From assembly GCA_027923505.1 (NCBI GenBank), contig BROI01000010.1, positions 1 through 64,000 on the forward strand: 64,000 nt of DNA, read 5' to 3'. This document shows, in pieces, positions 20,080 to 63,639 of the stretch. Every line of letters begins with the position of its first letter. The stretch's first letter is position 1. The position numbers and the translations under genes were made by a program. The DNA comes from Mayamaea pseudoterrestris (Eukaryota). The notes under the pieces were generated by a model. The model had not been told where the DNA came from. It did not search any database and worked only from the letters and a program-made list of their open reading frames with translations.

Positions 20080-20637
20080 TTACGCCTTTCCAACCTTGAC
20101 GAATCGACCTCTCGCCGCTTGCTTCTTGGTAATCTTCTTTGGCTCCTCATCAGCCTTTTCAACTGGCGCTTCCTCCTGCTTTAAGATAATTTCAATGTGT
20201 GCCGGTTGACTGGCATACTTGCCGATGCGACCATGAGCGCGGTAGGTTCTTCGTCGTCCAGCAGGTGCCCGGTTCACTTGAGCATGATCAATGACAAGTT
20301 GCTCCGACTCTAGTCCCTTGGTCGTGGCATTGGCAACGGCATTTTTGAGCAGATCAATGTACACAGCCGTCGCCTTGACTGGCCAGCGACCCTTGCTACC
20401 CGGCGCCTTGACTTGCTTGGCCATGGCCTTGCGTCCGATACCTCCGGTAAACTTGACAAAGGGAATAATCGCCTTGAACTCCAAAACGTTTTCCAAATGC
20501 TTCAAGGCCTTGTCAACCTTCATGCCCTTGGTAAAGTGAGCAATCTCCCGACAGTGCTTGAAATGCACGCGAAGGCCGGCGCCGCGGGCTTTAGAGGTCT
20601 TTTCGGGGACCTCGGGTTCGACACTGTAGCGGACCAT
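20080..20637 (-). CDS. RPL17: 60S ribosomal protein L17 (uL22)
   Basis: MVRYS, LRVHFK, GRWPVK and RRRTYRAHGRI. A 5'-UTR intron at ~20644-20805 is possible. Confidence 0.97.
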   Translation of the reverse strand: MVRYSVEPEVPEKTSKARGAGLRVHFKHCREIAHFTKGMKVDKALKHLENVLEFKAIIPFVKFTGGIGRKAMAKQVKAPGSKGRWPVKATAVYIDLLKNAVANATTKGLESEQLVIDHAQVNRAPAGRRRTYRAHGRIGKYASQPAHIEIILKQEEAPVEKADEEPKKITKKQAARGRFVKVGKA

Positions 20638-21239
20638 TATTACTAGTTATATGTAGGATGTAAAAAGAAACGTGGCTGAAAATCCAGATGTAAAGAAGGA
20701 TGATGTGAGACAATAATTCAAATTGAAATGAAAGGGGTCATAGCATGCGACTCGACGAGAATTCAGTCTCCGGAGGTCTCTGCGCTTGTAGACCTTTTAA
20801 ATTACTCCTTGCTCTTAATAACTAACAGATTCACAACGAATTTCGTCACTGCAGCAGCAACACACCTTGCTCGTTTGCGTCGTCGATCATGGAAGCGCTC
20901 ATGCTGATCGGTCGGGCAGCGGTTAGTAAGGCGATACGCGGTAAAACGCATTAGGTCGGTGTGCTTCGTCCCCGATTGGCATATGTGTACCGCAGCGACT
21001 TCTGCATAACGATGCGACATTTGATTCAACCGCGTCGACGCGCCCAAGCGCGATCATTCTTCGAACCTCTCGCATGGCAGATCTTTGGCATTCCACATGC
21101 CGATTTCCATGTACAAGCTGTAGTCACAGCAATTAGACAGGAAGGAGCATTATCATTTCCGAATAATAAAGCTTGTTTAATGATTCGCTTACGATCAACT
21201 CATGAGAGACGATCAACGTCCCTATCAGGCGAGACTAGA

Positions 21240-24200
21240 ATGACGGAACGATCGACGAAAGTGCCGAAGGTTGCTCTCCTTTGGTTTCTCCTTGTGTCGC
21301 TCGTTCCAAACGTAACATCGTTTCAAACGATATTGCCACAATTGCGTCTACAGTCATCAAATAACAGATTAATGCCATTGCAATATAAGGATGATGATGA
21401 AGGATACTCATTGGGACTTCGACCATCAAGGCGACGATCGAAAACGATTTCCAAGCACCAACAAACCGCAAATACGTTGAATGGCTCTACTGCTGCAAAT
21501 ACAAGCCAAGTCGTCTCAATGGGAATTCCGGAAAATATGCCGCCTCAAGGCACGCAACTTGACGTACCAACCAACTCGTCAAGCAATTTGGAGTCACACT
21601 CTGTCATTGATCTTGCACTGCGCCAAGCGAGCGAAACGTCGAGTAGCACCACAAACATGTTTGGAATGCGCAGAGGAAACTCAAAGGCGACTCGCAAACC
21701 TTCACTTTATACGGGGAAGAAATGGAACGAAACCGTTTCGCATCGAAATCCAATCCTTGACGCCTTGTCAGACATGATGCGGGGCCACAAGGATGGAAAC
21801 AATACGACGAAACATGGAGCAGGTATGAAGAAACGACGAAATAAGCACTCTGGTATCGATGATCGTAAAAACGCATCATTATCAAGCAGCAGCAGCGCGA
21901 ATTCGACGGCGGCTCACGACGAAAACCCAATTCTGTCAGTGTTATCCGACCTGATGCCGGGCTACAAGGATGAAAACAAGACGATGGCTCAAAACACAAT
22001 TGTCAAGAAACACAACATCAAGGATATTACAGCTGAGAACCTTAATGCAACAATGTCAAGCAGCAAAACTAGCAGTAGCAGCAGGAAAACCAGCGGGAAC
22101 GTCACGGCGACCCATGACGAAAATCCGATTCGTTCAGTATTATCAGACGTGATGCCGGGCTACAAGGACGAAAACACGACGATGGATCAAACAAAGAAAC
22201 GACAGCATACGCATAACGGAGCTGACAACCGTGACGTATCACTGTCAAGCAGCAAGAGGGACAGTACTAGCGGCAGCACAAACAGCGCGAATGAAACGGC
22301 CAACGAAAAGAATCCAAAACTTTCAGTTATTTCCGACATGATGCCCAGCTACAAGGATGAAAACAAGACGAAGGATCAAACAGCCGAAAAACAAGATATT
22401 ACTGTTGGTCATGCTGCATCGTCATTGAGCAGCAGCAATGGTGCAAATGCGACGGCGTTCAGCAAGAAGAATCCAAGCCTTTCAGTGTTCTCGGGGTTAT
22501 TGCTCGGCACCGAAAACAGTACGAATGAATCTCAACAAGTAGCAGACAGCGAGAATGACCACGAAGTGGATCATGACGAATCGGCGACTAGCACCGGAAA
22601 CTCAACGGGCTCGTCCAAAAATCCAGTCCTTGCCGCCTTGTCGCGCTTGATGCCAACTACAAAAACGAAGGCAAGAGACGCTCATCAAGCACCTGTTAGC
22701 GAGAAGCTTGACGACGACAGGAGTCACAACGTATCATCGACTAGCAGCGCAAATGTCACCACAGCTCGGCGAAAAAGAAACCCAGTCTTGTCCGCATTCT
22801 CTCGTATTATGCCTGGTTACAGGGACAAAGATAAGTCGAAAGACTCTGATGGAAGCTTAAGTGACACATCGTACAAGAAGAGAAAAGGCTACAATGACAG
22901 GGGTGCAAGAGACAAGGGCGTTGCACTATGGTATAGAACCAACTCGACAACACTGGCGCTGCCCCCGGCTTCGGCCTCGGGATCAGGTGCCATGACGAGT
23001 ACTGCGCCATATAACAATGCGCTCGTCGACAAGAATCCATCTGAGGTAATCACACTAGGCGACTTGGAGTCCTTCTTGGTTGCAAATCGCTTTGTCCGTG
23101 AACGCGACTTGGAAGCATGGACCGCCAGTTTGGCACTGGACCAAAAATCAAAGGGCAAGAACCCTGACGAAATGTCAGCTCTTGACGCCGCCGGTGCACT
23201 CATTGCTGATGCCCATGACAAGACAGAAGAAACGTCATCGACATCATCAGGCGTGGCATTTCCGCAACCATCAATGCTTTGCGTGAAGGACTTGAAATAT
23301 GGTACTACTTTATCTTCTGGTCTGTTTGGTTTGTTACTCGCTGCGTCATTCTTGCCCAACATGTGGCTGGTCGGAAGTATTGTGGGCGGCTTGTATGGCT
23401 ATGACTTGGTCAGCAAAATTGGCGCAGTGGCGGCTGATGACGAGGAACCAACGTCAATTGTGCCTCGCCTACTGCTGCGGTCGGGTCGCTGGTTGGCCAA
23501 GACGTCGCTGAAGATTTACGATTCCATTGTAATCCTTTGGTTTTTATACAAGACGGGTCAATTGTCGTACGAGTACTTTAAGCGCTACGAAGCTTTGGAC
23601 CAAAGGTTTGCCATTCAAGACAAGATTGATAAGTGGAACTCCGTCTTTGTCAAGGGTAAGATTGCGTTTGACGAGTGGGAGCAAGAAAACGAAATCGGCC
23701 GCAAGGTGGTTGCATCCCTTCGTACTGCCTGGCTCGTGGAGGAGCAGAGTTTGAAAAAGGCCGAGCGGGAGCGCAGATCAAAGTATCGCGTTGTCCAAGT
23801 GCTTTATGATGGTTTGGATAATGTAAAGCGCACCTTGCGATCAATGTGGCTTACCGTCACTGGGCGAGGCGATTCTCAATTTTTCGAGTTTCTGGAAGGT
23901 TTGCGAGTGCGTGTGGCCGAGTCCTGTCGCTTGGATGAATTAGCACGTCGGTCGGGTCCCATTTTTGCCGCATTAATCATTCTGAATATGGCCGGAGCCT
24001 TGTTCAAGTTGTCTCCGATTGTTCTGTCAGTTTTTGCCGTTTTCGCTGGAATTACTTGGCCGAGCTGGTGGTCCGAGTTTGTCGATCGCCTATCAGAGTT
24101 TGCCGACGAAACTCGCGCACGCGGCCGACGTGAATTGGACGAAGAGCCCGATCGTGGCGTGTCGCAATCGTTGTCTTCATCTTCCGGATCCCTGCTTCCG

Positions 24201-24380
24201 CCGAAATTCGACAAGCGGGAGTATGCGTACTACATACGAGAGGATGGATCGCGGCGATACTATCTGAAGGGCAAGCCATGGTTCTTCGGGAAGCCGCGCG
24301 AGCCCGAGAAGAAAAGTATCTGGCCTTGGAAAAGTGGCAAGGATCAGGAAGGCTCCGTAGGATGGTCATGGCCATGGTGA
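21240..24380 (+). CDS. Hypothetical signal-peptide protein with 7 spaced NPxLxxLSxxMPGY repeats and C-terminal hydrophobic helices
   Basis: Long uninterrupted ORF (20961-24380). The likely start MTERSTKVPKVALLWFLLVSLVPNVTSF is followed by an S/T/N/K-rich repeat region and two hydrophobic clusters near the C-terminus. Confidence 0.8.
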   Translation: MTERSTKVPKVALLWFLLVSLVPNVTSFQTILPQLRLQSSNNRLMPLQYKDDDEGYSLGLRPSRRRSKTISKHQQTANTLNGSTAANTSQVVSMGIPENMPPQGTQLDVPTNSSSNLESHSVIDLALRQASETSSSTTNMFGMRRGNSKATRKPSLYTGKKWNETVSHRNPILDALSDMMRGHKDGNNTTKHGAGMKKRRNKHSGIDDRKNASLSSSSSANSTAAHDENPILSVLSDLMPGYKDENKTMAQNTIVKKHNIKDITAENLNATMSSSKTSSSSRKTSGNVTATHDENPIRSVLSDVMPGYKDENTTMDQTKKRQHTHNGADNRDVSLSSSKRDSTSGSTNSANETANEKNPKLSVISDMMPSYKDENKTKDQTAEKQDITVGHAASSLSSSNGANATAFSKKNPSLSVFSGLLLGTENSTNESQQVADSENDHEVDHDESATSTGNSTGSSKNPVLAALSRLMPTTKTKARDAHQAPVSEKLDDDRSHNVSSTSSANVTTARRKRNPVLSAFSRIMPGYRDKDKSKDSDGSLSDTSYKKRKGYNDRGARDKGVALWYRTNSTTLALPPASASGSGAMTSTAPYNNALVDKNPSEVITLGDLESFLVANRFVRERDLEAWTASLALDQKSKGKNPDEMSALDAAGALIADAHDKTEETSSTSSGVAFPQPSMLCVKDLKYGTTLSSGLFGLLLAASFLPNMWLVGSIVGGLYGYDLVSKIGAVAADDEEPTSIVPRLLLRSGRWLAKTSLKIYDSIVILWFLYKTGQLSYEYFKRYEALDQRFAIQDKIDKWNSVFVKGKIAFDEWEQENEIGRKVVASLRTAWLVEEQSLKKAERERRSKYRVVQVLYDGLDNVKRTLRSMWLTVTGRGDSQFFEFLEGLRVRVAESCRLDELARRSGPIFAALIILNMAGALFKLSPIVLSVFAVFAGITWPSWWSEFVDRLSEFADETRARGRRELDEEPDRGVSQSLSSSSGSLLPPKFDKREYAYYIREDGSRRYYLKGKPWFFGKPREPEKKSIWPWKSGKDQEGSVGWSWPW

Positions 24381-24710
24381 TTTGGAAACGCCAATTTGAA
24401 TCTGCCTACGCGTACCATTCGCCAGTTTGGTCGCAACTCTTTGACTGTATGGGATACACATACATTACACGCCCGCCTCTTGCATTAAGCTATTGCCTAC
24501 TTCACTGGTCCGAGTGGTTGAATGCGGTGCATACGACTACATACTGCAACATCCAACTCGGACGAAAACAGACAAAGGTGTCTCTTACGCGCTATTAAAG
24601 ATTGACAATTCACATGTTAATCATAAATGACACTCTTTATTACAAGCTAAGGCCCTAATGCATCAACTGTAGTGGGGCGTCAAACATGACTGTCTTTTTC
24701 CCACTAGCTC

Positions 24711-25604
24711 TCAGTCATCTTCATCCAACTCCTCCAAAGCTGCCGCAGCAGTCGATGAGGAAGAATCCAGCATGCCATCAAATATGTTACTCGGAGGCGG
24801 CGCTCCATTCAGGCCTCCCATTATTCCCTTTAGTAGTTCATCCTGGTCCATGTTTTGATACAAATTGGCAGCCGCCATCATGGCTTGCCTCCAGGCATCC
24901 TTGTCGTTCAACAAATCTTCCATGCCCGGCATGCCCGCCATCATATTTTTCAGCATTGGATTCGTCAGTATCATTTGTCTACTTTGTTCCAACTTTTCGG
25001 GATCCGACATGAACTCCTTGAATATCGGAGATTGCATCATGCTTGACATGGCCGACATGGCTTCCTGCATGGATGCTTCGCCGCCGGCGCCACCGCCCAT
25101 GCTTTTGAGCATTTCGTCAACCTGGGACGAGTCAATGCCAGACTTGGCCAAGTAGTCCTTCATCATGGCGTCCATATTGTTGCTTGCGCTTGCGCTTGCA
25201 TCGTTCGTGCTTGTTGAAGCAGCAGCTACAGTCGATGTTGTACTTGACGACGACGATTTCTTCTTCTTCTTTCCACTGCTACTACTGGTAGTCGCCGGAA
25301 TCATGCTTAACGACGCTCCATCAGTCACACCAGCATTCTTTAATATGCTGCTTGGTTCCAGTCGCTTGCCTTCAAACAAGACGGATTGTTGTTCAATGTC
25401 GGTCAAGCCCGTCGCAGCCGTCATGGCGGACTGCAAGTCGCGCACCGTTTGAACGTCCTGGGGTATTTCGTACTTTTTCCCACGCAGCGTCACCTGGAGA
25501 CCCGTGACTGCGGCATGTGAAATGGTAGCTAGTGATACAATGAGTAGGAGCTGTAGGAGTGTATGAGAGGAACAAGCGAGTTTGTGAGTCAAAAAAAGCA
25601 TCAT
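24711..25604 (-). CDS. Ubiquilin/Dsk2-like protein (UBL + STI1) with N-terminal signal peptide and no UBA domain
   Basis: LLQLLLIVSLATISHA signal; ubiquitin-like TVRDLQ...QQSVLFEGKRL...GVTDGA; Met-rich STI1-like MMQSP, MSDPEKL and ILTNPML. Confidence 0.8.
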   Translation of the reverse strand: MMLFLTHKLACSSHTLLQLLLIVSLATISHAAVTGLQVTLRGKKYEIPQDVQTVRDLQSAMTAATGLTDIEQQSVLFEGKRLEPSSILKNAGVTDGASLSMIPATTSSSSGKKKKKSSSSSTTSTVAAASTSTNDASASASNNMDAMMKDYLAKSGIDSSQVDEMLKSMGGGAGGEASMQEAMSAMSSMMQSPIFKEFMSDPEKLEQSRQMILTNPMLKNMMAGMPGMEDLLNDKDAWRQAMMAAANLYQNMDQDELLKGIMGGLNGAPPPSNIFDGMLDSSSSTAAAALEELDEDD

Positions 25605-47356: not shown

Positions 47357-48248
47357 GAGATTGGTGCAAAATTAAACTTCCTTAGCTGTTTCCTCGAAGC
47401 TACTCGTATGGTATGGGAGGGCAGTTCAGACATCCACACAGGAACCAGCTCCATGGTGCTACAGTGCATGGCCTTTCAAATCGAACCCCAATTGTGGTCT
47501 CGCTCCATCAATCCCATTTGGCTGTGCTTGGGGACATGCTTGCGGTGAGATTGGTGCAAAAAAATCATCCATAGCTGATTCAAAGCAGCTATGGTATTGG
47601 AGGGCAATCCAGCCATCCACACAGGTACCAGCTCCATGGTGCTACAGTGCATGGCCTTCCAGACCTCCCCCCCATTGTAGTCTCCCTCCATCAATACCAA
47701 TTGGCTATGCTTGGGGACATGCTTGCGGTGAGATTGGTGCATAAAAATTTTCCATAGCGGATTCCTAGCAACAATGGTTTGGGAGGGCAATCCAGCCATC
47801 CACACAGGTACCAGCTCCATGGTGCTACAATGCATGGCCTTCCAAATCTACCCCCAATTGCAGTCTTGCTCCATCAATCCTGTTTGGCTATGCTTGGGGA
47901 CATGCTTGCTGTGAGTTTGGTGCATAAAAATTCTTCCATAGCGGATTCCTAGCAGCAATGGTATGGGAGGGCAATCCAGATACCTACACAGGTACCAGCT
48001 CCATGGTGCTACAGTGCATGGGCTTTTTAAATCTACCCCCAATTGTAGTCTTGCTTCATCAATCCCGTATGACTATGCTTGGGGTCATGCTTGCGGTGAT
48101 ATTGGTGCAAAACAATTATCCATAGCTGATTCCTAGCAGCTATGGTATGGGAGGGCAATCCAGACATCCACACAGGAACGAGCTCCATGGTGCTACAAGG
48201 CATGGCCTTCCAAATCTACCCCCAATTGTAGTCTTGCTCCATCAATCC
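47357..48248. repeat. Satellite 2: ~5 tandem copies of a 183-184 bp unit
   Basis: GCTCCATGGTGCTAC recurs at 47448, 47631, 47814, 47998 and 48182. Confidence 0.95.
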
Positions 48249-51200
48249 TGAGACTGGTGACAAGTTGTCACCAAATACATTGCCATCCCCTGAGACACCA
48301 GCCAAGCCTACCATCTTGTAGCGCAGCCTGAATAATGATGTTGGCACCATTCTGGTGAATTTTGGGCACCTACAGGGCTTGCTGTAGTGGCGTTTGAATG
48401 TCCCAGCATCTGCGGGCTGAGACTGGTGACAAGTTGTCACCAAATACATTGCCATCCCCTGAGACACCATCCAAGCCTACCATCTTGTAGCGCAGCCTGT
48501 ATAATGATGTTGGCACCATTCTGGTGTATTTTGGGCACCTACAGGGCTTGCTGTAGGGGCGTTTGAATGTCCCGGCATCTGCGGGCTGAGACCGGTGACA
48601 AGTTGTCACCAAATACATGGCCATCCCCTCAGACACCAGCCAAGCCTACCATCTTGTAGCGCAGCTTGATAATGATTTGGGCACCATTCTGGTGTATTTT
48701 GGGCACCTACAGGGCTTGCTGTAGGGGCGTTTGAATGTCCCGGCATCTGCGGGCTGAGACTGGTGACAAGTTGTCACCAAATACATTGCCATCCCCTGAG
48801 ACACCAGCCAAGCCTACCATCTTGTAGCGCAGCCTGAATAATGATGTTGGCACCATTCTGGTGTGATTTGGGTGTACACATGGCTTGCTGTAGGGGCGTT
48901 TGAATGTCAAGGCATCTGCGGGCTGAGACTGGTGACAAGTTGTCACCAAAGCCAAGCCTACCATCTTGTAGCGCAGCCTGAATAATGATGTTGGCACCAT
49001 TCTGGTGTGATTTGGGTGTACACATGGCTTGCTGTAGGGGCGTTTGAATGTCAAGGCATCTGCGGGCTGAGACTGGTGACAAGTTGTCACCAATATCATT
49101 ACCGTCCCCTGAGACACTAGCCAGGTATACCATCTTGTAGCGCAGCCTGAATAATGATGTTGGCACCATTCTGGTGTATTTTGAGCACCTACAGGGCTTA
49201 CTGAAGGGGCGTTTGAATGTCACGGCATCTGCGGGCTGAGACTGGTGACAAGCTGTCACCAATATCATTGCTGTCCCCTGAGACACTAGCCAGGCATACC
49301 ATCTTGTAGCGCAGCTTGAATAATGATGTTGGCAATTTTCTGGTGACATTTGGGTATACACATGGCCTGCTGTAGGGGCGTTTGAATGCCACGGCATCTG
49401 CGGGCTGAGACTGGTGACAAGTTGTCACCAATATCATTGCCATCCCCTGAGACACTAGCCAGGTATACCATCTTGTTGCGCAGCCTGGATAATGATGTTG
49501 GCACAATTCTGGTGTCATTTGGGTGTATACATGGCCTGCTGTAGGGCGTTGAATCCGCATGCGGGCTGACACCACCCCGAAAATGTTGTGTTCTGTTGTT
49601 TTTTGCACACAGGCTGCAAGTGAGGCTGAGACTGGTGACAAGTTGTCACCAATATCATCCCCTGAGACACTAGCCAAGCATACCATCTTGTAGCGCAGCC
49701 TGAATAATGATGTTGGCACCATTCTGGTGTCATTTTGGGTACTATTCATGGCCTGCTGTGGGGCGTTTGAATGTCCCGGCATCCGCACTGAGACTGGTGA
49801 CAAGTTGTCACCAATGTCATTGCTATCCCCTGAGACACTAGCCAGGCCTACCATCTTGTGGCGCAGCCTGAATAATGATGTTGGCAATTCTGGTGTCATT
49901 TGGGTTTACCTACATGGCCTGCTGTAGGGGTGTTTGAACGTCCCGGCTCTGCGGGCTGAGACTGGTGACAAGTTGTCACCAATATCATTGCTGTCCCCTG
50001 AGACACCAGCCAAGCATACCATCTTGTTGCCCAGCCTGTAATGTTGGCACATTTCGGTGTGGTGTTCTGGCCCCTTGTAGGGCGTTTGAATTCACGGCAT
50101 CTGCAGGCTGAGACTGGTGACAAGTTGTCACCAATATCGTTACCGTCCCCTGAGCACTAGCCCAGGCATACCATCTTGTAGCGCAGCCTGAATAATGATG
50201 TTGGCAATATTCTTGTATTTTGGGCACCCCCAGGCCGCTGTATGGGCGGTTGAAGTAGCGCGGCATCGGCTGAGACGTGATAAGTTGTCACCAATATCAT
50301 TCCCGTCCCCTGAGACACCGCCAGGCAGGCATACCATCTTGTAGCCTGAATAATGATGTTGCACCATTCTGGTGTCATTTGGGTGTCATCTGCGGCCTGC
50401 TGTTAGGGCGTTTTGAATGTATCACGGCATCTGCAGGCTGGGAACCCCGGTGACAAGTTGTCACCAATATCTCGTTCCTGAGCACTAGTTTGGCATACCA
50501 TCTTGTTGCGCAGCCTGAATATGATGTTGGCACCATTCTGGTGTCATTTGGAGTGTATACATGGCCTGCTGTAGGGGCATTTGAATGTATCTGCAGACTG
50601 AGACTGGTGACAAGTTGTCACCAATATCATTGCAGTCCCCTGAGACACTAGCCAGGCATACCATCTTGTTGTGGCTAGCCAGAAGGTTTGTGTTCGACGG
50701 CATCTGAAGGCTGAGACTGAGTGACAAGTTGTCACCAATGTTTGCTGTCCCTGAGACACTAGCCAGGCATACCATCTTGTTGCGAGCCTGAATAATGGGC
50801 ACCAATCTGGTGTCATTTGTACGCCTGCTGTAGGGGCATTTGAATCGCGGCATCTGCAGGCTGAGACGACAAGTTGTCCAATATGTCCCTGGACACTAGC
50901 CAGGCATACCATCTTGTAGCGCAGCCTGGATAATGATGTTGGCCTGTTCTGGTGTCATTGGGTGTATAAATGTGTCACTGCTGTGGGGCGTTTTGAATGT
51001 CGGCATCTGCGGGCTGAGACTGGTGACAAGTTGTCACCAATATCATTGCTGTCCCCTGAGACACTAGCCAGGCACACCATCTTGGCGCAGCCTGGATAAT
51101 GATGTTGGCACAATTCTGGAAGTATCATTTGGTTGTATACACATGGCCTGCTGTAGGGGCATTTAGATATGTGACGCTGCAGGACTGGGGCTGGTGACAA

Positions 51201-51465
51201 GTTGTCCAATTGCTGCCTGAGACATAGCCAGGCATACCTCATCTTGTAGCGCAGCTGGATAATGATGTTGGCACAATTCTGGTATCATTTGGTTGTATGC
51301 GCAGCGCACTGCCTTGGAGGCGTTTGAATGTCACGGCATCTACGGGCTGAGACTGAGTGACAAGTTGTCACCAAAACCGTGCCATGCCCTCGAGACACCA
51401 GCCAAGCCTGCCATCTTGTGGCGCAGCCTAAAAAATGATGTTAGCACCATTCTGTCATTTGGGTG
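48248..51465 (-). repeat. Satellite 1 array in inverted orientation, roughly 19-20 units
   Basis: Reverse complement of the 2803-5145 unit (CTGAGACTGGTGACAAGTTGTCACCA...). Increasingly divergent and indel-rich to the right. Confidence 0.95.
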
Positions 51466-51589
51466 GGCCTGTTGAGAGTGTTAGGGTTAAGGTGGCGGTG
51501 GGCGGGTGTGTGGTTAGGGGTGTTGGGTGTCACACCGCTTTGGTGTCTCCAGGTGTTGCCCTGTCGGTGTTGCCTCGCCGTTTTGCCGT

Positions 51590-54500
51590 TTCCATTGTCA
51601 TGGCCACACCCTGGGCATGTTTTGCCCTGACTCATTGGGTGGTTGGGTGGCCAAAGCATGGGGGCATTGTAGTGGTATGATTCCATAATTTGGGGTGTTG
51701 CCCCACCCATCTTGTGGACCATTCCATGCTGTGGGCCTCCGCGGCTCAAGTGATCCGTTTTGTACCATTTCCAGCCATCCTCATGTCAATGGCACCCTGG
51801 ACATGTGTCGCATTACTAATTGGGTTGTTGGGTGATCAGGGGATGGGGGCATTGTCAGTCGGTATGATTCCATATGGTGTTCCACTCTCATTTTGCTTGG
51901 TGGTGTGGGCCTCCAGGCAGTCTTTTCCTTCAGCCCGTCCTCCACTGTATTGGCCCTTGGACATGTTTTGCCCTGGCCACTCATTGGGTTGTTGGGTGGC
52001 CAGGGCATGGGGCATTGCAGTGGTATGATTCCCTAATTTGGGGTGTTGGCCACACCCTCTTGTGCCATTCCACCTTGGCCTCAGGCAGTCCGTTTTGTAC
52101 CATGTCAGACCATCCTCATGTCAATGGCCCCTGGACATGTTTTGCATCGACTCATTGGGTTGTTGGTGATCGGCGAGACCGGGGCGGTGTAGTGGTATGA
52201 TTCCATAATTTGGGGTATTGGTGCTGCCTCCAGGCAGTCCGTTTTGCACCATTTCAGCCATCGTCTTGTCATGGCACACCCTGGACATGTTTTGCTTGTA
52301 ACCTCATTGGTTGTTGGGGCCAGGGCATGGGCTGTAGTGTATGATTCCGATCTGGGTGTTGGCCACACCCATCTTGTAGACCCCATGCTGTAGGCCTCCA
52401 GGCAGTCCGTTTTTGTACCTAGCCATCCTCATGTCAATGGCACACCCTGGACATGTTTTGCCTGACTCTTTGGGTTGTTGGGTGGGCCATGGCAAGGGGG
52501 CATTGTGGGTTTCTGGGGTCCCTCTTCTGGCCTCCAGCAGTCCGTTTTGTACATGTCCAGCCATCCTCATGTCAATGGCACCTTGGACATGTTTTGCATG
52601 ACTCATTGGGTTGTTGAATTGGTGTTGGGGCGAGGCATTGGCGTGTGGGTATGATTCCATAATTTGGGGTGTTGGGCCACACCCATTTTGCAGATGGTGT
52701 AGGCCTCCAATCAGTCCCGTTTTGCACCATTTCAGCCCATCCTCATGTCAATGGCACACCCTGGACATGTTTTGCCTGACTCATTGGGTGTTGGGTGGCC
52801 AGGGCATGCGTGGTTCTTTGGGGTGTTGGTGCCCATTTGTCGGCCCTTCCTAGGCCTCCAGGCAGTCCGTTTTGTACCATGTCAGCCATCCTCATGTCCA
52901 ATGGCACACCCTGGACATGTTTTGCCGGGCATTGAGGTATGATCCGCAATTGGGGTGTTGGCCACACCCATTTTGCAGATGTAGGCCTCCAGGCAGATCC
53001 GTTTTGCACCATTTCAGCCCATCACTCCTGTCCAATGGCACACCGTGAGACATGTTTTGCCCCTGCTCATTGGGTTGTTGGGTGTGGGCGGGGGCATCGT
53101 AGTGAGTATGATTCCATAATTTGGGGTGTTTGCCACACCCATTTTGCCAGATGGTGTGGGCCTCCAGGCAGTCACGTTTTGCACCATTTCAGCCCATCCT
53201 CATGTCAATGGCACACCCTGGACATGTTTTGCCCGACTCATTGGGTTGTTGGGTGGCTAGGGCATGTGGCATTGTAGTGGTATGATTCCAATTTGGGGGT
53301 GTTGGCCACACCCATCTTGTAGACCATTCCATGCTGTAGGCCTCCAGGCAGTCCGTTTTGTGCCATGTCAGTTCATCCTCCATGTCAATGGCACACCCTG
53401 GACATGTTTTGCATGACTCATTGGAGTTTGTTGGGTGATCAGGGGCAGGGGCATTGTGGTGGTATGATTCCATAATTTGGGGTGTTGGCCACCATTTTGC
53501 AGATGGTGTAGGCTCCAGGCAGTCCGTTTTGCCCATTTCCAGCCATCCTCATGTCATGGCACACCCTGGACATGTTTTGCCTGAAGCTCATTGGGTTTGT
53601 TGGGTGGCCAGGGCATGGGGCATTTGTGTGGTATGATTCCACAATTTTGGGGGTGTTGGCCCACACCCATCTTGTGGACCATTCCATGCTGTGAGGCGCA
53701 CTCCAGGCAGTCCGTTTTTGTACCATGTCCGCATCTGCTGGCACACCACCCCCTCCCCGTGTCTTCTGACTCATTGGGTTCGTTGGTGCCAGCCTGGCAT
53801 GGGGCATTGTCAGTGGTATGATTCCATAATTTGGGGTGTGGCCACACCCATCTTGTGGTTTCATTTCATGCTGTAGGGCTCTGGGGATCCGTTTGCTGCC
53901 ATCCTCATGTCAATGGCACACCTGAACATGTTTACTCATTGGGTTGTTGGGTGATCCTCGGGGACGGGGCATTGTGGTAGGTATGATTCCACATAATTTG
54001 GGGCGTTGGGTGGCCTCCAGGCAATCCGAGCATCCTCTGTCATGGACACCCTGGACATGTTTTGCCTGACTCAGTGGGTTGTTGGGTGGCCAGAACAGAA
54101 GACATTGTAGTGGTATGATTCCATAATTTGGGGTGTTGTCCACACCCATCTTATGTCTGCCACTTAGGCCTCCAGGCAGTCCGTTTGTACCATGTCAGCC
54201 ATCCCTCATGTCAATGGCACACCCCTGGACATATTTTATGACTCATTGGGTTGTTGGGTGATCAGGGACGGGGCATTGTGTGGTATGATTCAAAATTTGG
54301 GGTGTTGGCCACACCCATTTTGCAGATAATTGCCTCCCAGGCAGTCCGTTTGCACCATTTCAGACCATCCTCATGTCAATGGCGGCACACCCCCTGGACA
54401 TGCTTGTCTAACTCATTGGGTTGTTGTGGCCAGGGCATGGGCATTGCTCAGTGGTATGATTCCATAATTTGGGGTGTTGGCCACGCATGCTGTAGACCAT

Positions 54501-57500
54501 TCCATGCTGTGAGCCTCCAGAGCAGTCCAGTTTCATCCATGTCCAGACCATCCTCATGTCAATAGCACCTGGTTTATGTTTGGTTGGTTGGGTGATCAGA
54601 GACGAGGGCATTGTAGTGGTATGGTTCATAATTTGGGGTGTTGGCCACACCCATTTTACGAATGGTGTGAGCCTCCAGGCAGTCCATTTTGCACCATTTC
54701 AGCCCATCCTCATGTCAATGCTTCACCCTGGACATGTTTTGCCTGACTCATTGGGTTGTTGGGTGGCCCGGGGCATGGGGCATTGTAGTGAGTATTCCAT
54801 AATTTGGGGTGTTGGCCACACCCATCATGCCATTCCATGCTGTAGGCCTCCAGGCAGTCCGTTTTGTACCATGCCAGACCATCCCCTCATATCAATGCAC
54901 ACCCTGGACATGTTGCATGGCTCATTGGGTTGTTGGGTGATCAGAGGACGAGGGCATTGTGTGGTATGATTCCGCCAATTTTGGGGTGTTGGCCACACCC
55001 ATTTTGCAGATAGTTGCATAGGCAGTCCGTTTTTGCACCATTTTCCAGCCCATCCTCATGTCAATGGCACCCTGGACATGTTTTTGCTTGACTCATTGGG
55101 TTGTTGGGTGGCCAGGGCAGCAGGGCATTGTAGTGGTATGATTCCATAATTTTGGGGTGTTGGCCACACCCATCTTGTAGACCATTCCATGCTGTAGGCC
55201 TCCAGGCAGTCCGTTTTTTACCATAATGGGCCATTATGTCATGGCACACCCTGGACATGCATTGTTCATTGGGTTGTTGGGTGATCAGGGATGGGGCATT
55301 GTAGTGGTATGATTCCATAATTTGGTGTTGTACACCCATTTTTGCCAGATGGTGTAGTAGGCCTCCCAGGCAGTCCTTCTTGCACCATTTCAGACCATCC
55401 TCATGTCAATGGCATACCCTAAACATGTTTTGCCTGACTCATTGGTTGTTGTGGCCAGGGCATGGGGGCATTGTGGTGGTATGATTCCATAATTTGGGGT
55501 GTTAGCCACACCCATCTTGTAGACCATTCCATGCTGCGGCCTTAGGCAGTCCGTTTTGTACCATGTCAGATCATCCCCTCATGTCAATGGCACACCCTGG
55601 ACATGTTTTGCATGACTCATTGGGTTGTTGGGTGATCAGGGACGGAGCATGTGGTATGGTTATAATTTGGGAGTGTTGGCCACACCCATTTTGCAGATGA
55701 TTGTAGGCCTCCAGGCAGTCCGTTTGCACCATTCAGCCCCATCCTCATGTCATGGCACACCCTGGACATGTTTGCCTGACTCATTGGGTTGTTGGGTGGC
55801 CAATGGGGCATGGGGCATTGTAGTGGTATGATTCCATAATTTTGGGGTGTTGGCCACACCCATCTTGTAGACCATTCCATGCTGTAGGCCTCCAGGCAGT
55901 CCGTTTTTGTACCATGTTAGACCATCACTCATGTCAATGGCACACCCTGGACATGTTTGTGACTCATTGGGTTGTTGGTGATCAGGGGATGGGGCAGCTC
56001 AATAATTAGTATGGTTACATAATTTGGTGTTGGCCACAATTTGCAGATGAATTGTAGGCCTCCCAGGCAGTGTTTTGCACCATTTCAGCCCATCCTCATG
56101 TCAATGGCACACCCTGGACATGTTTTGCCTGACTCATTGGGTTGTTGGGTGGTCAGGGCATAGGGCATTGTAGTGGTATGATTCCATAATTTGGGGTGGT
56201 GGCCACACCCATCTTGTAGACCATTCCATGCTGTAGGCCTCCAGGCAGTCCGTTTTGTACCATGTCAGATGTCTCATGTCAATAGCCCCCTGGACATCTT
56301 GCATGACTCATTGGGTTGTTGGGTGATCAGGGACCAGGGGGCATTGTAGTGGTATGATTCCATAATTTGGGTGTTGGCCACACCCACATTTGTAGATGGT
56401 GTAGGCCTCCAGGCAGTCCGTTTTGTACCATTTAGCCCATCCTCATCAGTATGGCACACCCTGGACATGTTTGCCTGATAATTGGGTTGTTGGGTGGCCA
56501 GAGGCGTGGGGGCATTGTAGTGGTATGATTCCATAATTTGGGGTGTTGGCCACACCCATCTTGTAGACCATTCCATGCTGTAGGCCTAGGCAGTGTTATG
56601 TACCATGTCAGGCCATCTCTGCACAGTGGCACACTGTTTTCTGCATGACTCATTGGGCTGTTGGGTGATCAGGGACGGGGGCATTGTAGTGGTATGATTC
56701 CATAATTTGGGGCGTTGGCCTCATTTTGCAGATGGTGTGGCCTCCAGGCAGTCCTTTGCACCATTTCCTTGAGCCATCCTCATGTCATGGCACACCCTGG
56801 ACATGTTTTGCCTGACTCATTGGGTTGTTGGGTGGCCAGGGCATGGGGCATTGTAGTGGTATGATTCCATAATTTGGGGTGTTGGCCACACCCATCTTGT
56901 AGTTTCATTCCATGCTGTAGGCCTCCAGGCAGTGTTTTGTAATGCCAGACCATCCTCATGTCAATGGCACACCCTGGACATGTTGTGCATGACTCATTGG
57001 CTTGTTGGGTGATCAGAGTTAGGGCATTGTAGTGGTATGATTCCATAATTTGAGGTGTTGGCCACACCCAATTTTGCAGATAGTGTAGGCATCAGGCAGT
57101 CCGTTTTGCACCATTTCAGCCCATCCTCATGTCAATGGCACCTGGACATGTTTTGGACTCATTGGGTTGTTGAATTTGGCCAGGGCATGGGGCATTGTAG
57201 TGGTATGATTCCATAATTTGGGGTGTTGGCCACACCCATCTTGTAGACCATTCCATAGGCCTCCAGGCAGTGTTTTGTACCATGTCAGACTATCACTCAT
57301 GTCAATGGCACACCCCTGGACATGTTTGCATGACTCATTGGATTGTTGGGTGATCAGGGAGCGGGGCATTGTAGTTAATGATTCCATAATTTGGGGTGTT
57401 AGCCACCCATTTGCAGATGGTGTAGGCCTCCCAGGCGATCCGTTTTGCACCATTTCAGCCCATCCTCATGTCAATGGCACACCCTGGACATGTTTGCCTG

Positions 57501-60500
57501 AAACTCATTGGGTTGTTGGGTGTAGGGCATGGGGCATTGTAGTGGTATGATTCCATAATTTGAGATTGTTGGCCACACCCATCTTGTAGACCATTCCATG
57601 CTGTAGGCCTCCAGCTGAGTCAGTTTTAATACCATGTCAGACCATCCTCATGTCAATGGCACACCCTGGACATGTTTTGCATGACTCATTGGGTTGTTGG
57701 GTGATCAGGATGGGGCATTTAATAGTTATGATTCCGCCAATTTGGGGTGTTGGCCACACCCATTTGCAGATGGTGTAGGCCTCCAGGGCCAGTCCGTTTG
57801 CACCATTTCAGCCCATCCTCATGTCCAATGGCACACCTGGACATGTTTGCCTGACCTCATTGGGTTGTTGGGTGGCGGTGTGGGGCATTATGAGTGGTAT
57901 GATTCCATAATTTGCAGGTGTGGCCTTTATCTGCCAATTCCATGCTGTAGGCCTAGGCAGTCGTTTTGTACCATAATCAGCATCCTCATGTCAAGGCACA
58001 CCTGGACATGTTTGCATGACTCATTGGGTTGTTGGGTGATCAAGGGACGGAGACATTGTAATTAGGTATGATTCCATAATTTGGGGCGTTGGCCACACCC
58101 ATTTTGCAGATGGTGTGGGTTTGTTGGTGGCCAGGGCATGGGGCATAGTAGTATGATTCCCTAATTTGAGGTGTTGGCCACACCATCTTGTGAACCATTC
58201 TGGCCCCCAGGCAGTCGTGTTTGTACCGTGTCAGACCATCCTCTTGTCATTGGCACACCCTGGACATGTTTACTCATTGGGTTGTTGGGTGATCAAGGGG
58301 ACGGGGCATTGTAGTGGTATTCCATAATTTGCGGGTGTTGGCCACACCCATTTTTGCAGAATGGTGTAGGCCTTCCTGAGCAGTCCGTTTTGTACCATTT
58401 CAGCCCATCCTCATGTCAATGGCACACCTGGTCATGTTTTGCCTGACTCATTGGGTTGTTGGGTGGCCAGGGCATGGGCACTGTAGTGGTATGATTCCAT
58501 AATTTGGGGTGTTAGGCCACACCCATCTTGGGACCATTCCATGCTGTAGGCCTGTAGTCCGTTTTGCATGTCAGGCCATCCTCGCCATCAGTGGCACACC
58601 CTGGACATGTTTTTCATTGGGTTGTTGGGTGATCAGGGGGCGGGGCATTGTAGTTATGTTCCCATAATTTGGGGTGTTGGCCACACCCATTTTGTAGATG
58701 GTGTAGGCCTCTAGGCGGTCCGTTTTTTCTTCCAGCCCATCTCATGTCAACGGCACACCCTGGACATTTTGCCTGACTCATTGGGTTGTTGGGGGGCCAG
58801 GGCATGCGAGGCATTGTGTGGTATGATTCCACAATTTGGGGTGTTGGCCCACACCCATCTTGTGGACCATTCCTGTCTTCTGTGGCTCCAGAGCAGTCGT
58901 TTTGTCATGTCAGACCTCCCTCTAATGGCACACCCTGGACATGTTTTGCACTCATTGGGTTGTTGGGTGTGTCAGGGGGGGCGGGGCATTCGTAGTCAGG
59001 TATCGATTCCTTAGTTTGGGTGTTGGCCCACCCATTTTGCAGATGGTGTAGGCCTCCAGTCGGTCCGTTTTGCACTATTTCAGCCCATCCTCCTTGTCAA
59101 TGGCACACCCTGGACATGTTTTGCCATCATTGGTTTGTTGGGTGGCCCGGGGCGCAGGGGCATTGTGTGGTATGATTCACATAATTGGGGTGTTGGCCAC
59201 ACCCATCGCCTTGCCGTGTATTCCATGCTGTAGGCCTCTAGGCAGTCCGTTTTGTACCATGTGAGACCATCCTGTGTCATGGCACACCCTGGACATGTTT
59301 TGCACTGACTTGTGGTTGTTGGGTGATCAGGAGACGGGGCATTGTGTGGTATGGTTCCATATTGGGGTGTTGGCCGCCCCTTGCAGATGGTGTGGGCCCC
59401 TCCAGGCAGTCCGTTTTTACTGGCCTCTGGCCCATCCCTCTGTCAGCATGCACCCTGGACATGTTTTGCCTGACTCATTGGGTTGTTGGTGGCTTCAGGG
59501 GCATGAGGGCATTGTGTGGTATGATTCCATAATTTGGGGTGTTGGCCACACCCATGCTTGTGGACCATTCCCTCGCTGCTGTCGGCCTCCCGGGCAGTCC
59601 GTTTTTGTACACCATGTCAGATATCCTCATGTCAATGGCACACCCTGGACTGTTTTGCATGACTCATTGGGTTGTTGGGTGATCAGGGGCGGGGCATTGT
59701 GTGAGTCATGATTCCGCATTTGGGGTGTTGGCCACCCATTTTGCAGATGGTGTGGGCCTCCAGGCGGTCCGTTTTGCACCATTTCAGCCCATCACTCATG
59801 TCCATACGGCCCCTGGACATGTTTTGCCTGACTCATTGGGTTGTTGGTGGCCAGGGCATGGGGCATTTGTGTGGTCTGTTCCATAATTTGGGGTGTTGGC
59901 CGCCCCATCTTTGGACCTTCTGACTGTAGGCCTCCAGGCAGTCCGTTTTGTACCATGTCAGACCATCCTCACAATGGCTTTCACCCTGGACATGTTTGCA
60001 TGACTCATTGGGTTGTTGGTGATCAAAGGGGATGGGGCATTGTAGTGGTATGATTCATAATTTGGAGGTGTTGGCCACACCCATTTTGCAGATGGTGTGG
60101 GCCTCCGGGCGATCGTCTTTTGCACCATTTCCAGCCCATCCGTGCCCTCCCACTCATTGCGGGTTGTTGTTGGCCAGGGCATGGGGCATTCTGGTGGTAT
60201 GATTCCATAATTTGGGGTGTTGGCCACACCCATCTTGACCATTCCATGCTGTAGGCCTCCAGGCAGTTGTTCATGTCAGCCATCCTCATGTCAATGGCAC
60301 ACCCTGGACTGTGTTTGCATGACTCATTGGGTTGGGTGATCAGGGGAACGGGAGCATGTAATTAGGTATGATTCCATAATTTGGGGTGTTGGCCACCCAC
60401 TCCTTTTTGAAAGATGGTGTAGGCCTCGGGCAGTCCGTTTTGCCTGCCATTTCCAGCCCATCCTCTTGTCATCACACCCTGGACATGTTTTTGCCTGACT

Positions 60501-63500
60501 CATTGGGTTGTTGGGTGGCCCAGGGCATGGGGCATTGTTGGGTATGATTCCATAATTTGGGGTGTTGGCCACCCCTTCTTGTACTTTATTCCATGCTGTA
60601 GGCCTCCAGGCAGTCCGTTTTGTACCATGTCAGACCATCCTCATGTCAATGGCACACCCTGGACATGTTTGCATGACTCATTGGGTTGTTGGGTGATCAG
60701 GGGACGGGGCATTGTAGTGGTATGGTTTCTTAATTTGGGGTGTTGGCCACACCCATTTTGCAGATGGTGTAGGCTTCCAGGCAGTCCGTTTTGCACCATT
60801 TCAGCCTATCCTCATGTCAATGGCACACCCTCGACATGTTTTTGCCTGACTCATTGGGTTGTTGGATGTGGCCAGGGCATGGGGCATTGTAGTGGTATGA
60901 TTCCATAATTTGGGTTGTTGGCCACACCCATCTTGTAGACCATTCCATGCTGTAGGCCTAGGCAGTCCGTTTTGTACCATGTCAGACCATCCTCATGTCA
61001 GTGGCACACCCTGGACATGTTTTGCATGACTCATTGGGTTGTTGGGTGATCAGGGACGGGGCATTGTGGTGGTATGATTCTGTGGTTTTGGTGTTGGCCA
61101 CACCCATTTTGCAGATGGTGTAGGCCTCAGGCAGTCCGTTTGTTCAGCCCACATCCATGTCATGGCACACCCTGGACATGTATTGCCTGGCTCATTGGGT
61201 TGTTGGGTGGCCAGAGCATGTCGAGGCATTGTAGTAGGTATGATTCCATAATTTGGGGTGTTAGCCACACCCATCTTGTAGACCATTCCCATGGTGTAGG
61301 CCTCCAGGCAGTCCATTTTGTACCATGTCAGACCATCCTCATGTCAATGGCACACCCTGGACATATTTTGCATGACTCATTGAGTTGTTCGATATGATCA
61401 GGGGCGGGGCATTGTGTGGTATGATTCCGCCAATTTGTATGGGTTGGCCCCCCCCATTTGCAGATGGTGTGGCCTCCCAGGCAGTCAGTGTGCATTATTC
61501 AGCATCCTCATGTCAATGGCACACCCTAAACTTGTTTTGCCTGACTCATTGGGTTGTTGGGTGGCCAGGGCATGGGGCATTGTAGTGGTATGATTCCATA
61601 ATTTGGGGTGTTGGCCACACCCATCTTGTAGACCATTCCATACTGTAGATCTCCAGGCAGTCCATTTTGTGCCATGTCCAGACCATCCTCATGTCAATGG
61701 CACCCACTGGACATGTTTGCATGACTCATTGGGTTGTTGGGTGATCAAGGGACGGGGCATTATGGTAGTATGATTCCATAATTTGTATGGGTTGGCCACA
61801 CCCATTTTGCAGATGGTGTGAGCCTCCCAGGCGATCCGTTTCCATCATTTCAGCCCATCCTCATGTCAGCCGCACACCCTAAGCTTATGTTTTGCCCACG
61901 ACTCATTGGGTTGTTAATTTGGCCAGGGCATGGGGCATTGTAGGAGTATGATTCCATAATTTGGGGTGTTGGCCACACCCATCTTGTAGACCATTCCATG
62001 CTGTGAGCCTCCAGGCAGTCCGTTTTGTACCATGTCAGACCATCCACTCAAGTCAATGGCACACCCTGGACATGTTTGCATGACTCATTGGGTTGTTGGG
62101 TGATCAGGGGACGGGGCATTGTGGTGAATCAGTTCCATAGTTTGGGGTGTTGGCCCACCCATTTTGGATGGTGTGAGCCTCCAGGCAGTCCGTTTTGCAC
62201 CATTTCCGCCCCATCCCTCCAATGGCACACCCTGGACATGTTTTGCCTGGCTCATTGTGGTTTGTTGGTGAGCCGGGCATGAGAGCATTGTAGTGGTATG
62301 ATTTCCATAATTTGGGGTGTTGGCCACACCCATCTTGTAGACCATTCCATGCCTGTAGGCCTCCAGGCAGTCGTTTTGTACTGCATGTCAGCATCCCACC
62401 TCATGTCAATGGCACACCCTGGACATGTTTTGCCTGACTCATGTTGGGTGATCGGGGCGGGGCATTGGTGGCTTGTTGGGGGTTGGCCCCCCATTTGTTG
62501 CCAGATGGTGTAGGCCTCTCAGGCAGTCGTTTGCACCATTTCAGCCCATCACTCATGTCAATGGCACACCCTGGACATGTTTTGCCTGGCTCATTGGGGT
62601 TGGGTGGCCAGGGCATGGGAGCATTTTGGGGTTGATTCCATAATTTGGGGTGTTGGCCACACCCGTCTTGTAGACCATTCCATGCTGTAAGCCTCCAGGC
62701 AGTCGTTTTGTACATGTCAGACCATCCTCAAGTCAATGGCACCCTGGACATATTTTTGCCTGACTCATTGGGTTGTTGGGTGATCGGGGGGGCGATTGTG
62801 GTGGTATGATTCCATAATTTGGGGTGTTGGCCACACCCCATTTTGCAGATGGTCGTAGGCCTCGCAGGCGTCCGTTTTGCACCATTCCGGCCCATCCTCA
62901 TGTCAGCCAGCACACCCTGGACGTGTTTTGTCTGGCTCATTAGGGTTGTTGGGTGGCCGGGGCATGGGGCATTGTAGTGAGCCTTGATTCCATAATTTGG
63001 GGTGTTGGCCACACCCATCTTGTCATTATGCTCCAGCTGAGCCTCCAGGCAGTCCGTTTTGTACCATGTCAGACCATCCTCATGTCAATGGCACACCCTG
63101 GACATGTTTTGCCTGACTCATTGGGTTGTTGGGTGATCAGGGGATGGGGCATTGTGGTGGTATGGATCTCCATAATTTGGGGTGTCCACACCCATTTTGC
63201 AGATGTGCGGGCCTCCAGTCAATCCGTTGCATTTCAGCCCCATCCTCATGTCATGGCACACCCTGGACATGTTTTGCCTGGCTCATTGGGTTGTTGGGTG
63301 GCCCAGGCATGGGGGCATTGTAGTGGTATGATTCCACCAATTTGGGGTGTTGGCCACACCCATCTTGTTGAACCATTCCATGCTGTAGGCCTCCAGGCAG
63401 TCCGTTTTGTACCATGTCGGACCATCCTCATGTCAATATGGCACACCCTGGACATGTTTTGCCTGACTCATTGGGTTGTTGGGTGATCAGGGGAGGGGCA

Positions 63501-63630
63501 TTGTGGTGGTATGATTCCATAATTTTGGGGTGTTGGCCACACCCATTTTGCAGATGGTGTAGGCCTCCAGTCAGTCCGTTTTGCCCTTTTCGCCCATCCT
63601 CCAGCTCACCCTGGACATGTTTTCTGACAT
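51590..63630. repeat. Satellite 3: ~12-kb array of alternating ~180-bp (A) and ~171-bp (B) monomers (~350-bp dimer)
   Basis: Recurrent CCTGGACATG...TGACTCATTGGGTTGTTGGGTG. A carries TGGCCAGGGCATGGGG and CATCTTGTAGACCATTCCATGC; B carries TGATCAGGGACGGGG and CATTTTGCAGATGG. Example spacings: 60661 to 60832 to 61013. Confidence 0.95.
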
Positions 63631-63639
63631 CATTAGTTG

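Follow-up and report, generated by a model that had tools for sequence, protein, structure and literature searches.

The window analysed here is a stretch of 64,000 nucleotides from the diatom Mayamaea pseudoterrestris (NCBI GenBank assembly GCA_027923505.1, contig BROI01000010.1, positions 1 to 64,000 of the forward strand), and the gene in question lies on its + strand at 21240..24380, stop codon included. The gene is a single open reading frame (ORF) without introns and encodes a protein of 1046 amino acids (aa), with a predicted signal peptide, a long disordered region carrying seven copies of a short hydrophobic motif, and a conserved helical C-terminal domain with two hydrophobic hairpins. 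The uninterrupted ORF extends from 21012 to 24380, with 1122 codons counted from its first ATG. The ATG at 21240 stands immediately before the signal peptide, and an alternative start at 21180 yields the database model of 1066 aa, which is 20 codons longer.

The seven-unit repeat array

The repeat array occupies 21681..22898 (+; residues 148–553), as delimited by a regular expression (regex), a hidden Markov model (HMM) of the motif, and an alignment of the units. The regex NP..[SDA][AV][LIF]S found exactly seven matches in the translated ORF, with motif cores starting at 21747, 21924, 22122, 22311, 22470, 22620, and 22779 and consecutive spacings of 59, 66, 63, 53, 50, and 53 aa. When residues 29–640 were shuffled 20000 times, the regex matched 0.001 times on average and never more than once, and an HMM built from the seven copies recovered each of them with an independent E-value (i-E) of 8e-16 to 5e-11. 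An initial annotation of this DNA had described seven motifs, 50–66 aa apart in disordered linkers rich in Ser, Thr, Asn, and Lys; its start positions and peptides are reproduced as exact matches, its spacing agrees with the measured values, and the linker composition is likewise borne out, with 93 Ser, 55 Thr, 50 Asn, and 48 Lys among the 612 residues from 29 to 640.

Each unit is laid out as a Ser-rich tract, an [A/G/W]-N-x-T sequon, five to six further residues, the motif NPxLSVLSDxMPGYKD, and often a second sequon. The upstream N-x-T sequon is found 8–9 residues ahead of the motif in all seven units, and a second sequon (KDENxT) follows just after the motif in five of the seven. The core of the motif is a predicted hydrophobic helix of 9–10 residues (I/V-L-S-V-L-S-D-L-M) leading into P-G-Y-K-D. 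Asn-Pro commonly begins a helix and Pro-Gly commonly ends one; the former is present in every unit, with P-G behind the helix core in three of the seven only. Only five columns are invariant across the seven units: two from the upstream sequon (its N and T), the N-P pair, and one Ser. The hydrophobic moment of the motif is 0.48–0.67 in five of the seven copies as compared with 0.22 ± 0.14 for the region, such that the motifs form hydrophobic islands whose polar face is mostly Ser and Asp. The disordered region as a whole is basic (pI 9.5), as is the array itself (pI 9.4), and the copies follow one another at an even spacing of the ∼60-aa type (50–66 aa).

No DNA-level repeat was detected by Tandem Repeats Finder over 21000–24500 because the motif copies are old: the nucleotide identity of the motif cores is 42–86%, with 74–86% among units 2–4 and 42–51% among units 5–7. 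The rates of nonsynonymous (pN) and synonymous (pS) difference were compared in six pairs drawn from units 1–4, with the 16-codon motif set against the rest of the unit. pS was similar in the two compartments (0.46–0.63 in the motif and 0.50–0.75 in the rest), whereas pN was lower in the motif (0.05–0.25) than in the rest (0.30–0.56). The resulting pN/pS ratio was 0.10–0.55 in the motif versus 0.46–0.93 elsewhere, and none of the six pairs departed from this direction. The motif has been retained in these old copies, under stronger constraint than the linkers.

The array was also checked against independent contigs, drawn from four public runs that belong to a single study. Contigs of all four runs are collinear with the array and gene, and one contig of 1991 bases (21065–23059; 69 other letters, four gaps) covers all seven motifs. 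The indels listed for the coding part of the variant contigs all keep the frame: a 9-nt insertion at 21465, a 3-nt deletion at 21867, and, over 8 bases at 22018–22025, several one-base insertions and deletions that cancel out. One contig of run X4 also lacks a single nucleotide at 21156, a position ahead of both candidate starts. These contigs show that the array is real and coding and did not arise in assembly. The 69 differences over 1991 bases in the array-spanning contig suggest that divergent haplotypes or strains were sampled.

The protein family and its membrane domain

A HMMER scan of 1.84 billion representatives with a profile of the family returned 252 representatives at the cut-off of E ≤ 0.001, and 172 at E ≤ 1e-30. 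A word-indexed search gave 15 relatives, which match only the C-terminal 33–56% of the protein. Every member with a species name is from a diatom or from the bolidophyte Triparma (Fistulifera solaris, Amphora coffeaeformis, Cylindrotheca fusiformis, Pseudo-nitzschia, Bacillariaceae sp., Chaetoceros neogracilis, and Triparma retinervis), and all are annotated as hypothetical. Pfam assigned no family to the Mayamaea protein and only four chance-level families across 16 members (E 0.026–0.067, each in at most two members). A search of the ESM Atlas with the C-terminal domain gave no usable match, a sequence-profile search of the PDB gave two chance-level rows only (E 0.21 and 0.30), and a full-text literature search with peptide strings of the protein gave no paper. 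By these searches, the proteins constitute an unnamed family of diatoms and the bolidophyte Triparma, without known relatives. DOAP1, an oleosome-associated protein of 562 aa from Fistulifera solaris, is likewise a diatom-restricted protein with an endoplasmic reticulum (ER) signal peptide; it was rejected as a member, since the quinoprotein alcohol-dehydrogenase-like domain given for it in the available part of its description (PMC4113804) is absent from the Mayamaea family.

The members share a plan (alignment A1) that consists of a signal peptide, a short basic stretch, YSLGLxPY, a variable region, an LTLxDLESIL helix, and a conserved domain of ∼420 residues opening with (G)VAFPQPS. In the Mayamaea protein the first of these landmarks reads YSLGLRP (21405..21425, +; consensus YSLGLxP) and is the likely start of the mature protein. 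YSLGLxPY is kept right after the transit-peptide-like stretch in most members and may mark the mature N terminus or a processing site. The family-conserved short helix before the membrane domain is ITLGDLESFL (23049..23078, +), and the invariant or near-invariant AFPQP (23256..23270, +) opens the C-terminal domain. The region preceding AFPQP measures 215–505 residues in the 15 relatives versus 672 in the Mayamaea protein.

Hydropathy analysis of the 1046-aa protein identified hydrophobic segments at residues 7–29, 693–718, and 904–945, of which the latter two account for the hydrophobic C-terminal helices that had been noticed in the initial annotation. The C-terminal domain was modelled with AlphaFold2 (AF2) from 85 sequences, an earlier model from 16 sequences being poor (predicted local distance difference test (pLDDT) score of 54.9) and not used. 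The 85-sequence model has a mean pLDDT of 78, with 177 residues at 90 or above, and a predicted template modelling (pTM) score of 0.41. The modelled domain of ∼420 aa consists entirely of helices apart from one β-hairpin, includes a basic DETRARGRGE segment, and contains two hydrophobic helix-turn-helix hairpins. Hairpin 1 (23283..23429, +) is formed from two helices (residues 85–107 and 109–133 of the domain model, in a block with pLDDT of 95–98) joined by a tight turn at a conserved P-N-[LM]-W-L. It is followed by a conserved and predicted soluble helical region of ∼155 residues (23457..23924, +; KTGQLSYEY... and WEQENEIGRK...) that separates it from hairpin 2 (23931..24056, +), where the turn is at S-P and a conserved WPxW follows. 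A small conserved β-hairpin (YxFY..DGxxxYY; 24222..24266, +), supported by alignment and model, lies in the C-terminal tail.

Each hairpin of the model leaves the membrane on the side from which it entered, and so the tail and the central helices should lie on the same membrane side as the N-terminal region. Searches with the model yielded no match in the PDB at E ≤ 0.001 with Foldseek, and a wide VIA-align comparison gave a best Z of 5.3 with two chains at Z ≥ 5, none at Z ≥ 8, and generic helices in every case, which is no proof of a new fold. Reticulons and REEPs are hairpin-anchored membrane proteins, and the Mayamaea protein resembles them in having two hydrophobic helical hairpins with very short turns and, as modelled, soluble parts on one membrane face. 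It differs from them in the lack of any sequence or fold match in the Pfam and structure searches above, in the ∼155 conserved helical residues between the hairpins, and in the signal peptide, which would place the soluble parts in the lumen rather than the cytosol.

The array itself is not a family feature. The motif HMM identified seven copies in the Mayamaea protein and two or more copies in none of the 156 other family proteins. The only one of these 156 with a match below an i-E of 0.01 is P0003 (FSRFLPGYKDK, i-E 0.0028), which is a marginal single copy. P0003 is the closest relative (49% identical), and in the alignment its copy corresponds to unit 7, the one that lies closest to the membrane domain. 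A 42-column profile of the unit, run against a database of 5.8 billion clusters, retrieved the window's own protein alone among 7999 scored candidates, a weak indication in the same direction. Two members from other diatom lineages, P0012 (residues 117 and 158) and P0018 (residues 125 and 169), possess a two-copy hydrophobic motif of their own (ISxSFxFFED...), with the copies 41–44 residues apart, at the place where the Mayamaea protein has its array. The place of unit 7 is taken by DALLSFLPP... in Fistulifera-like relatives and by ISQSxHFFEDKQNLPKY in more distant ones, and homology of these distant hydrophobic motifs to the array motif is plausible from their position. On the evidence of profile and alignment, the seven-fold array is a lineage-specific expansion of an element that is found once or twice in other diatoms. 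The valency of this hydrophobic element seems to vary by lineage.

Targeting signal and N-glycosylation sequons

The predicted signal peptide (21240..21320, +; residues 1–27) begins at the ATG at 21240, reads MTERSTKVPKVALLWFLLVSLVPNVTS and then FQ, and contains most of the first hydrophobic segment. The cleavage context is ...VPNVTS|FQ, as in the initial annotation, which had read the signal as ending in VTS-F and the Phe at +1 (21321–21323) as a hint of plastid import. The subsequent transit-peptide-like stretch, FQTILPQLRLQSSNNRLMPLQ (21321..21383, +), has no Asp or Glu in its first 15 positions (FQTILPQLRLQSSNN) and starts with the uncharged residues FQT. In the available text on ASAFind 2.0 (PMC12136025), Phe, Trp, Tyr, or Leu at +1, an acid-poor stretch over the next 15 residues, and three uncharged residues at its start are given as criteria for plastid targeting, and these features are said to distinguish the plastid proteins of diatoms from periplastidal proteins and others with a signal peptide.

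These features were assessed across the 66 N-terminally complete members, taken as those with a Met start, a signal-peptide-like core within the first 45 residues, and PQP at least 120 residues downstream. An [AGSC]-F pair, of the kind seen in the Mayamaea protein, occurs within 26 residues after the core in 45 of the 66, compared with 26.4 ± 3.5 in shuffles and a maximum of 37 in 1000. When cleavage was called by the −3/−1 rule, Phe was the commonest next residue (40 of 66, versus 24 for Leu), against a background in those segments of 7.7% Phe and 13.3% Leu. The 15 residues starting at this Phe contain a mean of 0.42 Asp or Glu in the 45 members, where 1.47 are expected from the rest of the N-terminal region, with none in 28 and at most one in 43 of them. 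The first three positions are uncharged in 36 of these 45 members and include a charge in the remaining nine. The predicted presequence thus matches the bipartite plastid-import signal type of diatoms, and it does so family-wide.

A second property of the same region is its content of N-glycosylation sequons. Residues 29–640 contain 21 N-x-S/T sequons versus 11.5 ± 2.8 in composition-preserving shuffles, and the last 406 residues contain none. In 11 of 16 members the region before AFPQP has a sequon excess at z ≥ 2.4, about twice the expectation from composition, and the C-terminal parts of the 16 members have no such excess. The excess is kept while the sequence diverges beyond recognition, and it therefore points to selection for N-glycosylation of the variable region. 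From this pattern we infer that the sequons would actually be glycosylated. The initial annotation had allowed, on the strength of its many sequons, that the protein might equally be a secreted or surface glycoprotein; the glycoprotein part of that alternative is strengthened by the family-wide excess and by the invariant sequon of each unit, and it is compatible with routing to the plastid.

This compatibility arises because N-glycosylation requires passage through the ER lumen and diatom plastid proteins also make that passage. N-glycosylated proteins are imported into the plastid of Phaeodactylum, as stated in the available part of PMC8678454 (citing Peschke et al. 2013), so that a plastid presequence and glycosylation do not exclude one another. 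The Mayamaea protein resembles these Phaeodactylum proteins in combining a bipartite presequence with N-glycosylation sites (PMC8678454, PMC12136025). In the portions of these sources that were available, the glycosylated imports of Phaeodactylum are mostly enzymes or parts of the import machinery, whereas the Mayamaea family would have a selected sequon excess on a disordered stalk. The supplement of the Phaeodactylum N-glycoproteome (PMC8678454) yielded no peptide of the Mayamaea protein, which is uninformative, since it concerns another species and its table writes N(1) inside the peptides.

The surroundings of the gene are unremarkable on the coding side. The upstream neighbour (20080–20637, −) encodes ribosomal protein uL22/L17e (PF00237), the downstream neighbour (24711–25604, −) encodes a ubiquilin-like protein (PF23195) with a hydrophobic N terminus, and further out lie housekeeping genes for MIF4G/MA3, aldehyde dehydrogenase, alanyl-tRNA synthetase, and FGAR amidotransferase. 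Just 3′ of the stop codon, at 24430–24496, contigs of three of the four runs skip 65 bases; the missing stretch has TC at its start and TG at its end instead of GT and AG, and looks like an indel polymorphism of the 3′ flank and not an intron. The end of the window (48248–64000) consists of ∼16 kb of tandem satellite DNA without long ORFs and with a strong T-over-A skew on the + strand. Satellite units of 168–171 bases form arrays at 48248–51454 and again from 63646, and a second unit of 170–180 bases (also scored as a dimer of ∼350 bases) extends from 52226 to ∼63600 with 71–83% matches.

A putative multivalent adaptor and its alternatives

The kind of object encoded here is already known, namely a membrane-anchored disordered region with repeated short linear motifs. 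For the Mayamaea protein, the reading that we favour, with confidence a little better than even, is that of a membrane-anchored multivalent adaptor that is probably N-glycosylated and probably routed to the plastid. The conserved helical domain would be anchored in the membrane by its two tight hydrophobic hairpins. One ancestral element of the disordered region, a short amphipathic helix with an N-P cap in front, P-G behind it in three of the seven copies, and an N-x-T sequon 8–9 residues upstream, would have been duplicated to seven copies in the Mayamaea lineage, after which purifying selection would have preserved each copy while the linkers drifted. The outcome would be a flexible, probably glycosylated stalk of ∼400 residues that displays seven equivalent "stickers," each of them a hydrophobic helix with a probable N-glycan next to it. 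These stickers may bind several copies of one partner, which could be a membrane face or the surface of a protein, on the same side of the membrane as the rest of the protein. Whether the repeat helices engage in multivalent binding we regard as about evenly balanced on the sequence evidence. As to location, the presequence points most strongly to the interior of the plastid, past the periplastidal compartment, again at slightly better than an even chance. The sticker-and-spacer, targeting-signal, and membrane-anchor anatomy on which the initial annotation had built a scaffold is upheld, and its link to Rubisco, the pyrenoid, or a condensate is not.

Several observations weigh against the reading as a plastid-routed adaptor. 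No [AGSC]-F pair is found in the scanned segment of 21 of the 66 N-terminally complete members, and the signal-peptide and cleavage calls were made by regex heuristics, not by SignalP or ASAFind. Five of the 16 members show no clear sequon excess (z of 1.8, 1.7, 0.6, −0.4, and −0.9), and a sequon excess is in itself more typical of ER-lumenal, secretory, or surface proteins, and so pulls in a different direction from the plastid presequence. The pTM of 0.41 leaves the packing of the helices in the domain model uncertain, and the pN/pS comparison is a small sample of 16 codons per pair. Moreover, the homology of the array motif to the distant hydrophobic motifs (ISxSxHFFED..LPKY) rests on alignment position and is not significant by HMM.

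In the main rival reading, the protein could be a secretory-pathway glycoprotein that never enters the plastid and resides in the lumen of the ER or chloroplast ER, the vacuole, the silica-deposition vesicle, or at the cell surface, as a mucin-like stalk with repeated binding helices and with the Phe at +1 unused. The family-wide sequon excess, the sequons built into the repeat unit, and the Ser/Thr-rich linkers would all suit such a protein, and a cleaved signal peptide together with two hairpins would leave every soluble part in the lumen or outside the cell. The restriction of the family to diatoms and the silicified Parmales genus Triparma is also in keeping with it. Nevertheless, the family-wide Phe at +1 and the acid-poor 15 residues that follow are features that separate plastid proteins from others according to the available part of PMC12136025, and we consider the secretory alternative unlikely, though a serious competitor to the adaptor in the plastid.

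A far-reaching extension of the plastid adaptor, which we think improbable, is that the glycan-flanked amphipathic helix represents a new kind of sticker in a hitherto unrecognised class of N-glycosylated scaffolds inside the plastids of diatoms and bolidophytes, with a valency of one, two, or seven tuned by lineage so as to organise a plastid sub-compartment. Such scaffolds may, for example, tether thylakoids, envelope layers, or the periphery of the pyrenoid, or may hold lectin-type or quality-control factors.

It is also conceivable, at a somewhat lower level of credence, that the helices bind lipid directly, with the seven amphipathic helices and their Ser-rich polar face adsorbing weakly to a facing membrane and zipping or spacing envelope layers or thylakoids. 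An amphipathic moment well above that of the region, a polar face composed mostly of Ser and Asp, and hairpin anchors with a one-sided soluble mass, which resemble those of membrane-shaping proteins, would be consistent with this. The helices, however, are only ∼9–11 residues long, and sequons lie close on either side, where glycans would hinder membrane insertion.

The initial annotation had placed the protein among candidate pyrenoid tethers, a view in which a thylakoid or envelope anchor would carry the seven helices as stickers for Rubisco, in the manner of EPYC1, PYCO1, and the Chlamydomonas membrane proteins with Rubisco-binding motifs. The Chlamydomonas Rubisco-binding motif is [DN]W[RK]xx[LIVA], to which the Mayamaea protein has no match. 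PYCO1 (Phatr3_J49957) is the Rubisco linker of the Phaeodactylum tricornutum pyrenoid, and its stickers are, in the available text of PMC10288592, KWSP(RGGS), which binds the small subunit, and a GTGYNP tyrosine motif for homotypic condensation, both dependent on Trp or Tyr. In common with PYCO1, the Mayamaea protein comes from a diatom and repeats short conserved motifs within disordered basic sequence, for which multivalent stickers are here proposed (in PYCO1, proposed or shown). Compared by motif content, the two differ: KWSP and GTGYNP are absent from the whole Mayamaea protein, which instead has membrane hairpins and the sequons of its units. With EPYC1 and the Chlamydomonas motif-bearing membrane proteins it would share the ∼60-aa repeat spacing, helical stickers, and the idea of a membrane tether, and its 50–66 aa spacing fits the frequency of ∼60 aa expected of linker repeats in the available part of bioRxiv 10.1101/2023.10.26.564148. 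The plastid-type presequence, the basic disordered region, and the constraint on short helical motifs are further points in favour of a Rubisco linker. The Mayamaea protein differs from the EPYC1 group in belonging to another lineage with another form of Rubisco, and in an array that is not conserved even among diatoms. The mature N-terminal region has three Trp only, and an N-x-T sequon stands beside every helix, for which a Rubisco sticker in the stroma would have no use. According to the available part of the same preprint, no protein with ∼60-aa repeats turned up in a survey of the Thalassiosira pseudonana pyrenoid. Finally, the comparison of repeat number among relatives, which had been suggested as a check, found the array in none of the 156 other family proteins, apart from the single marginal copy, although pyrenoids are general in diatoms; this is in essence the result, repeats lacking in every orthologue, that the initial annotation had itself named as speaking against its proposal. 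No link to Rubisco, the pyrenoid, or a condensate was found on any of these counts, and we hold this explanation to be very improbable.

Two further possibilities merit almost no credence. Release of the 16–20-aa modules as seven similar peptides, by proteolysis at flanking basic residues, would agree with a conserved core between variable spacers, with Lys or Arg directly before N-P in five of the seven units (HR, EK, KK, SK, and KR), and with RRKR before unit 7, but N-P is preceded by HDE in two units, the motif is not followed by any consistent dibasic site, and the membrane domain is the conserved part of a family whose other members have one copy or none. A functionally neutral expansion of a low-complexity segment would suit the lineage-specific array and the freely varying length of the disordered region in the relatives, but old copies (pS ∼0.5–0.6) have kept the motif at a lower pN/pS than the linkers, five columns are invariant, and the contig that differs at 69 of 1991 bases retains all seven units with only in-frame coding indels.

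Diatoms fix a large share of marine carbon, and much of the protein machinery of their four-membrane plastids is unnamed. The family described here is widespread in diatoms and joins a plastid-type presequence with a sequon excess that appears to be selected, two properties that are rarely discussed together; the combination therefore offers a clean test of whether and why heavily glycosylated proteins enter complex plastids. The occurrence of one, two, and seven copies in different lineages provides a natural valency series with which the partner of the motif could be sought. Should the protein prove to be an ordinary secretory glycoprotein, it would serve as a warning that a Phe at +1 followed by an acid-poor stretch can mislead predictors of plastid targeting. 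If it is a glycosylated scaffold within the plastid, glycans would be part of the internal architecture of that organelle.

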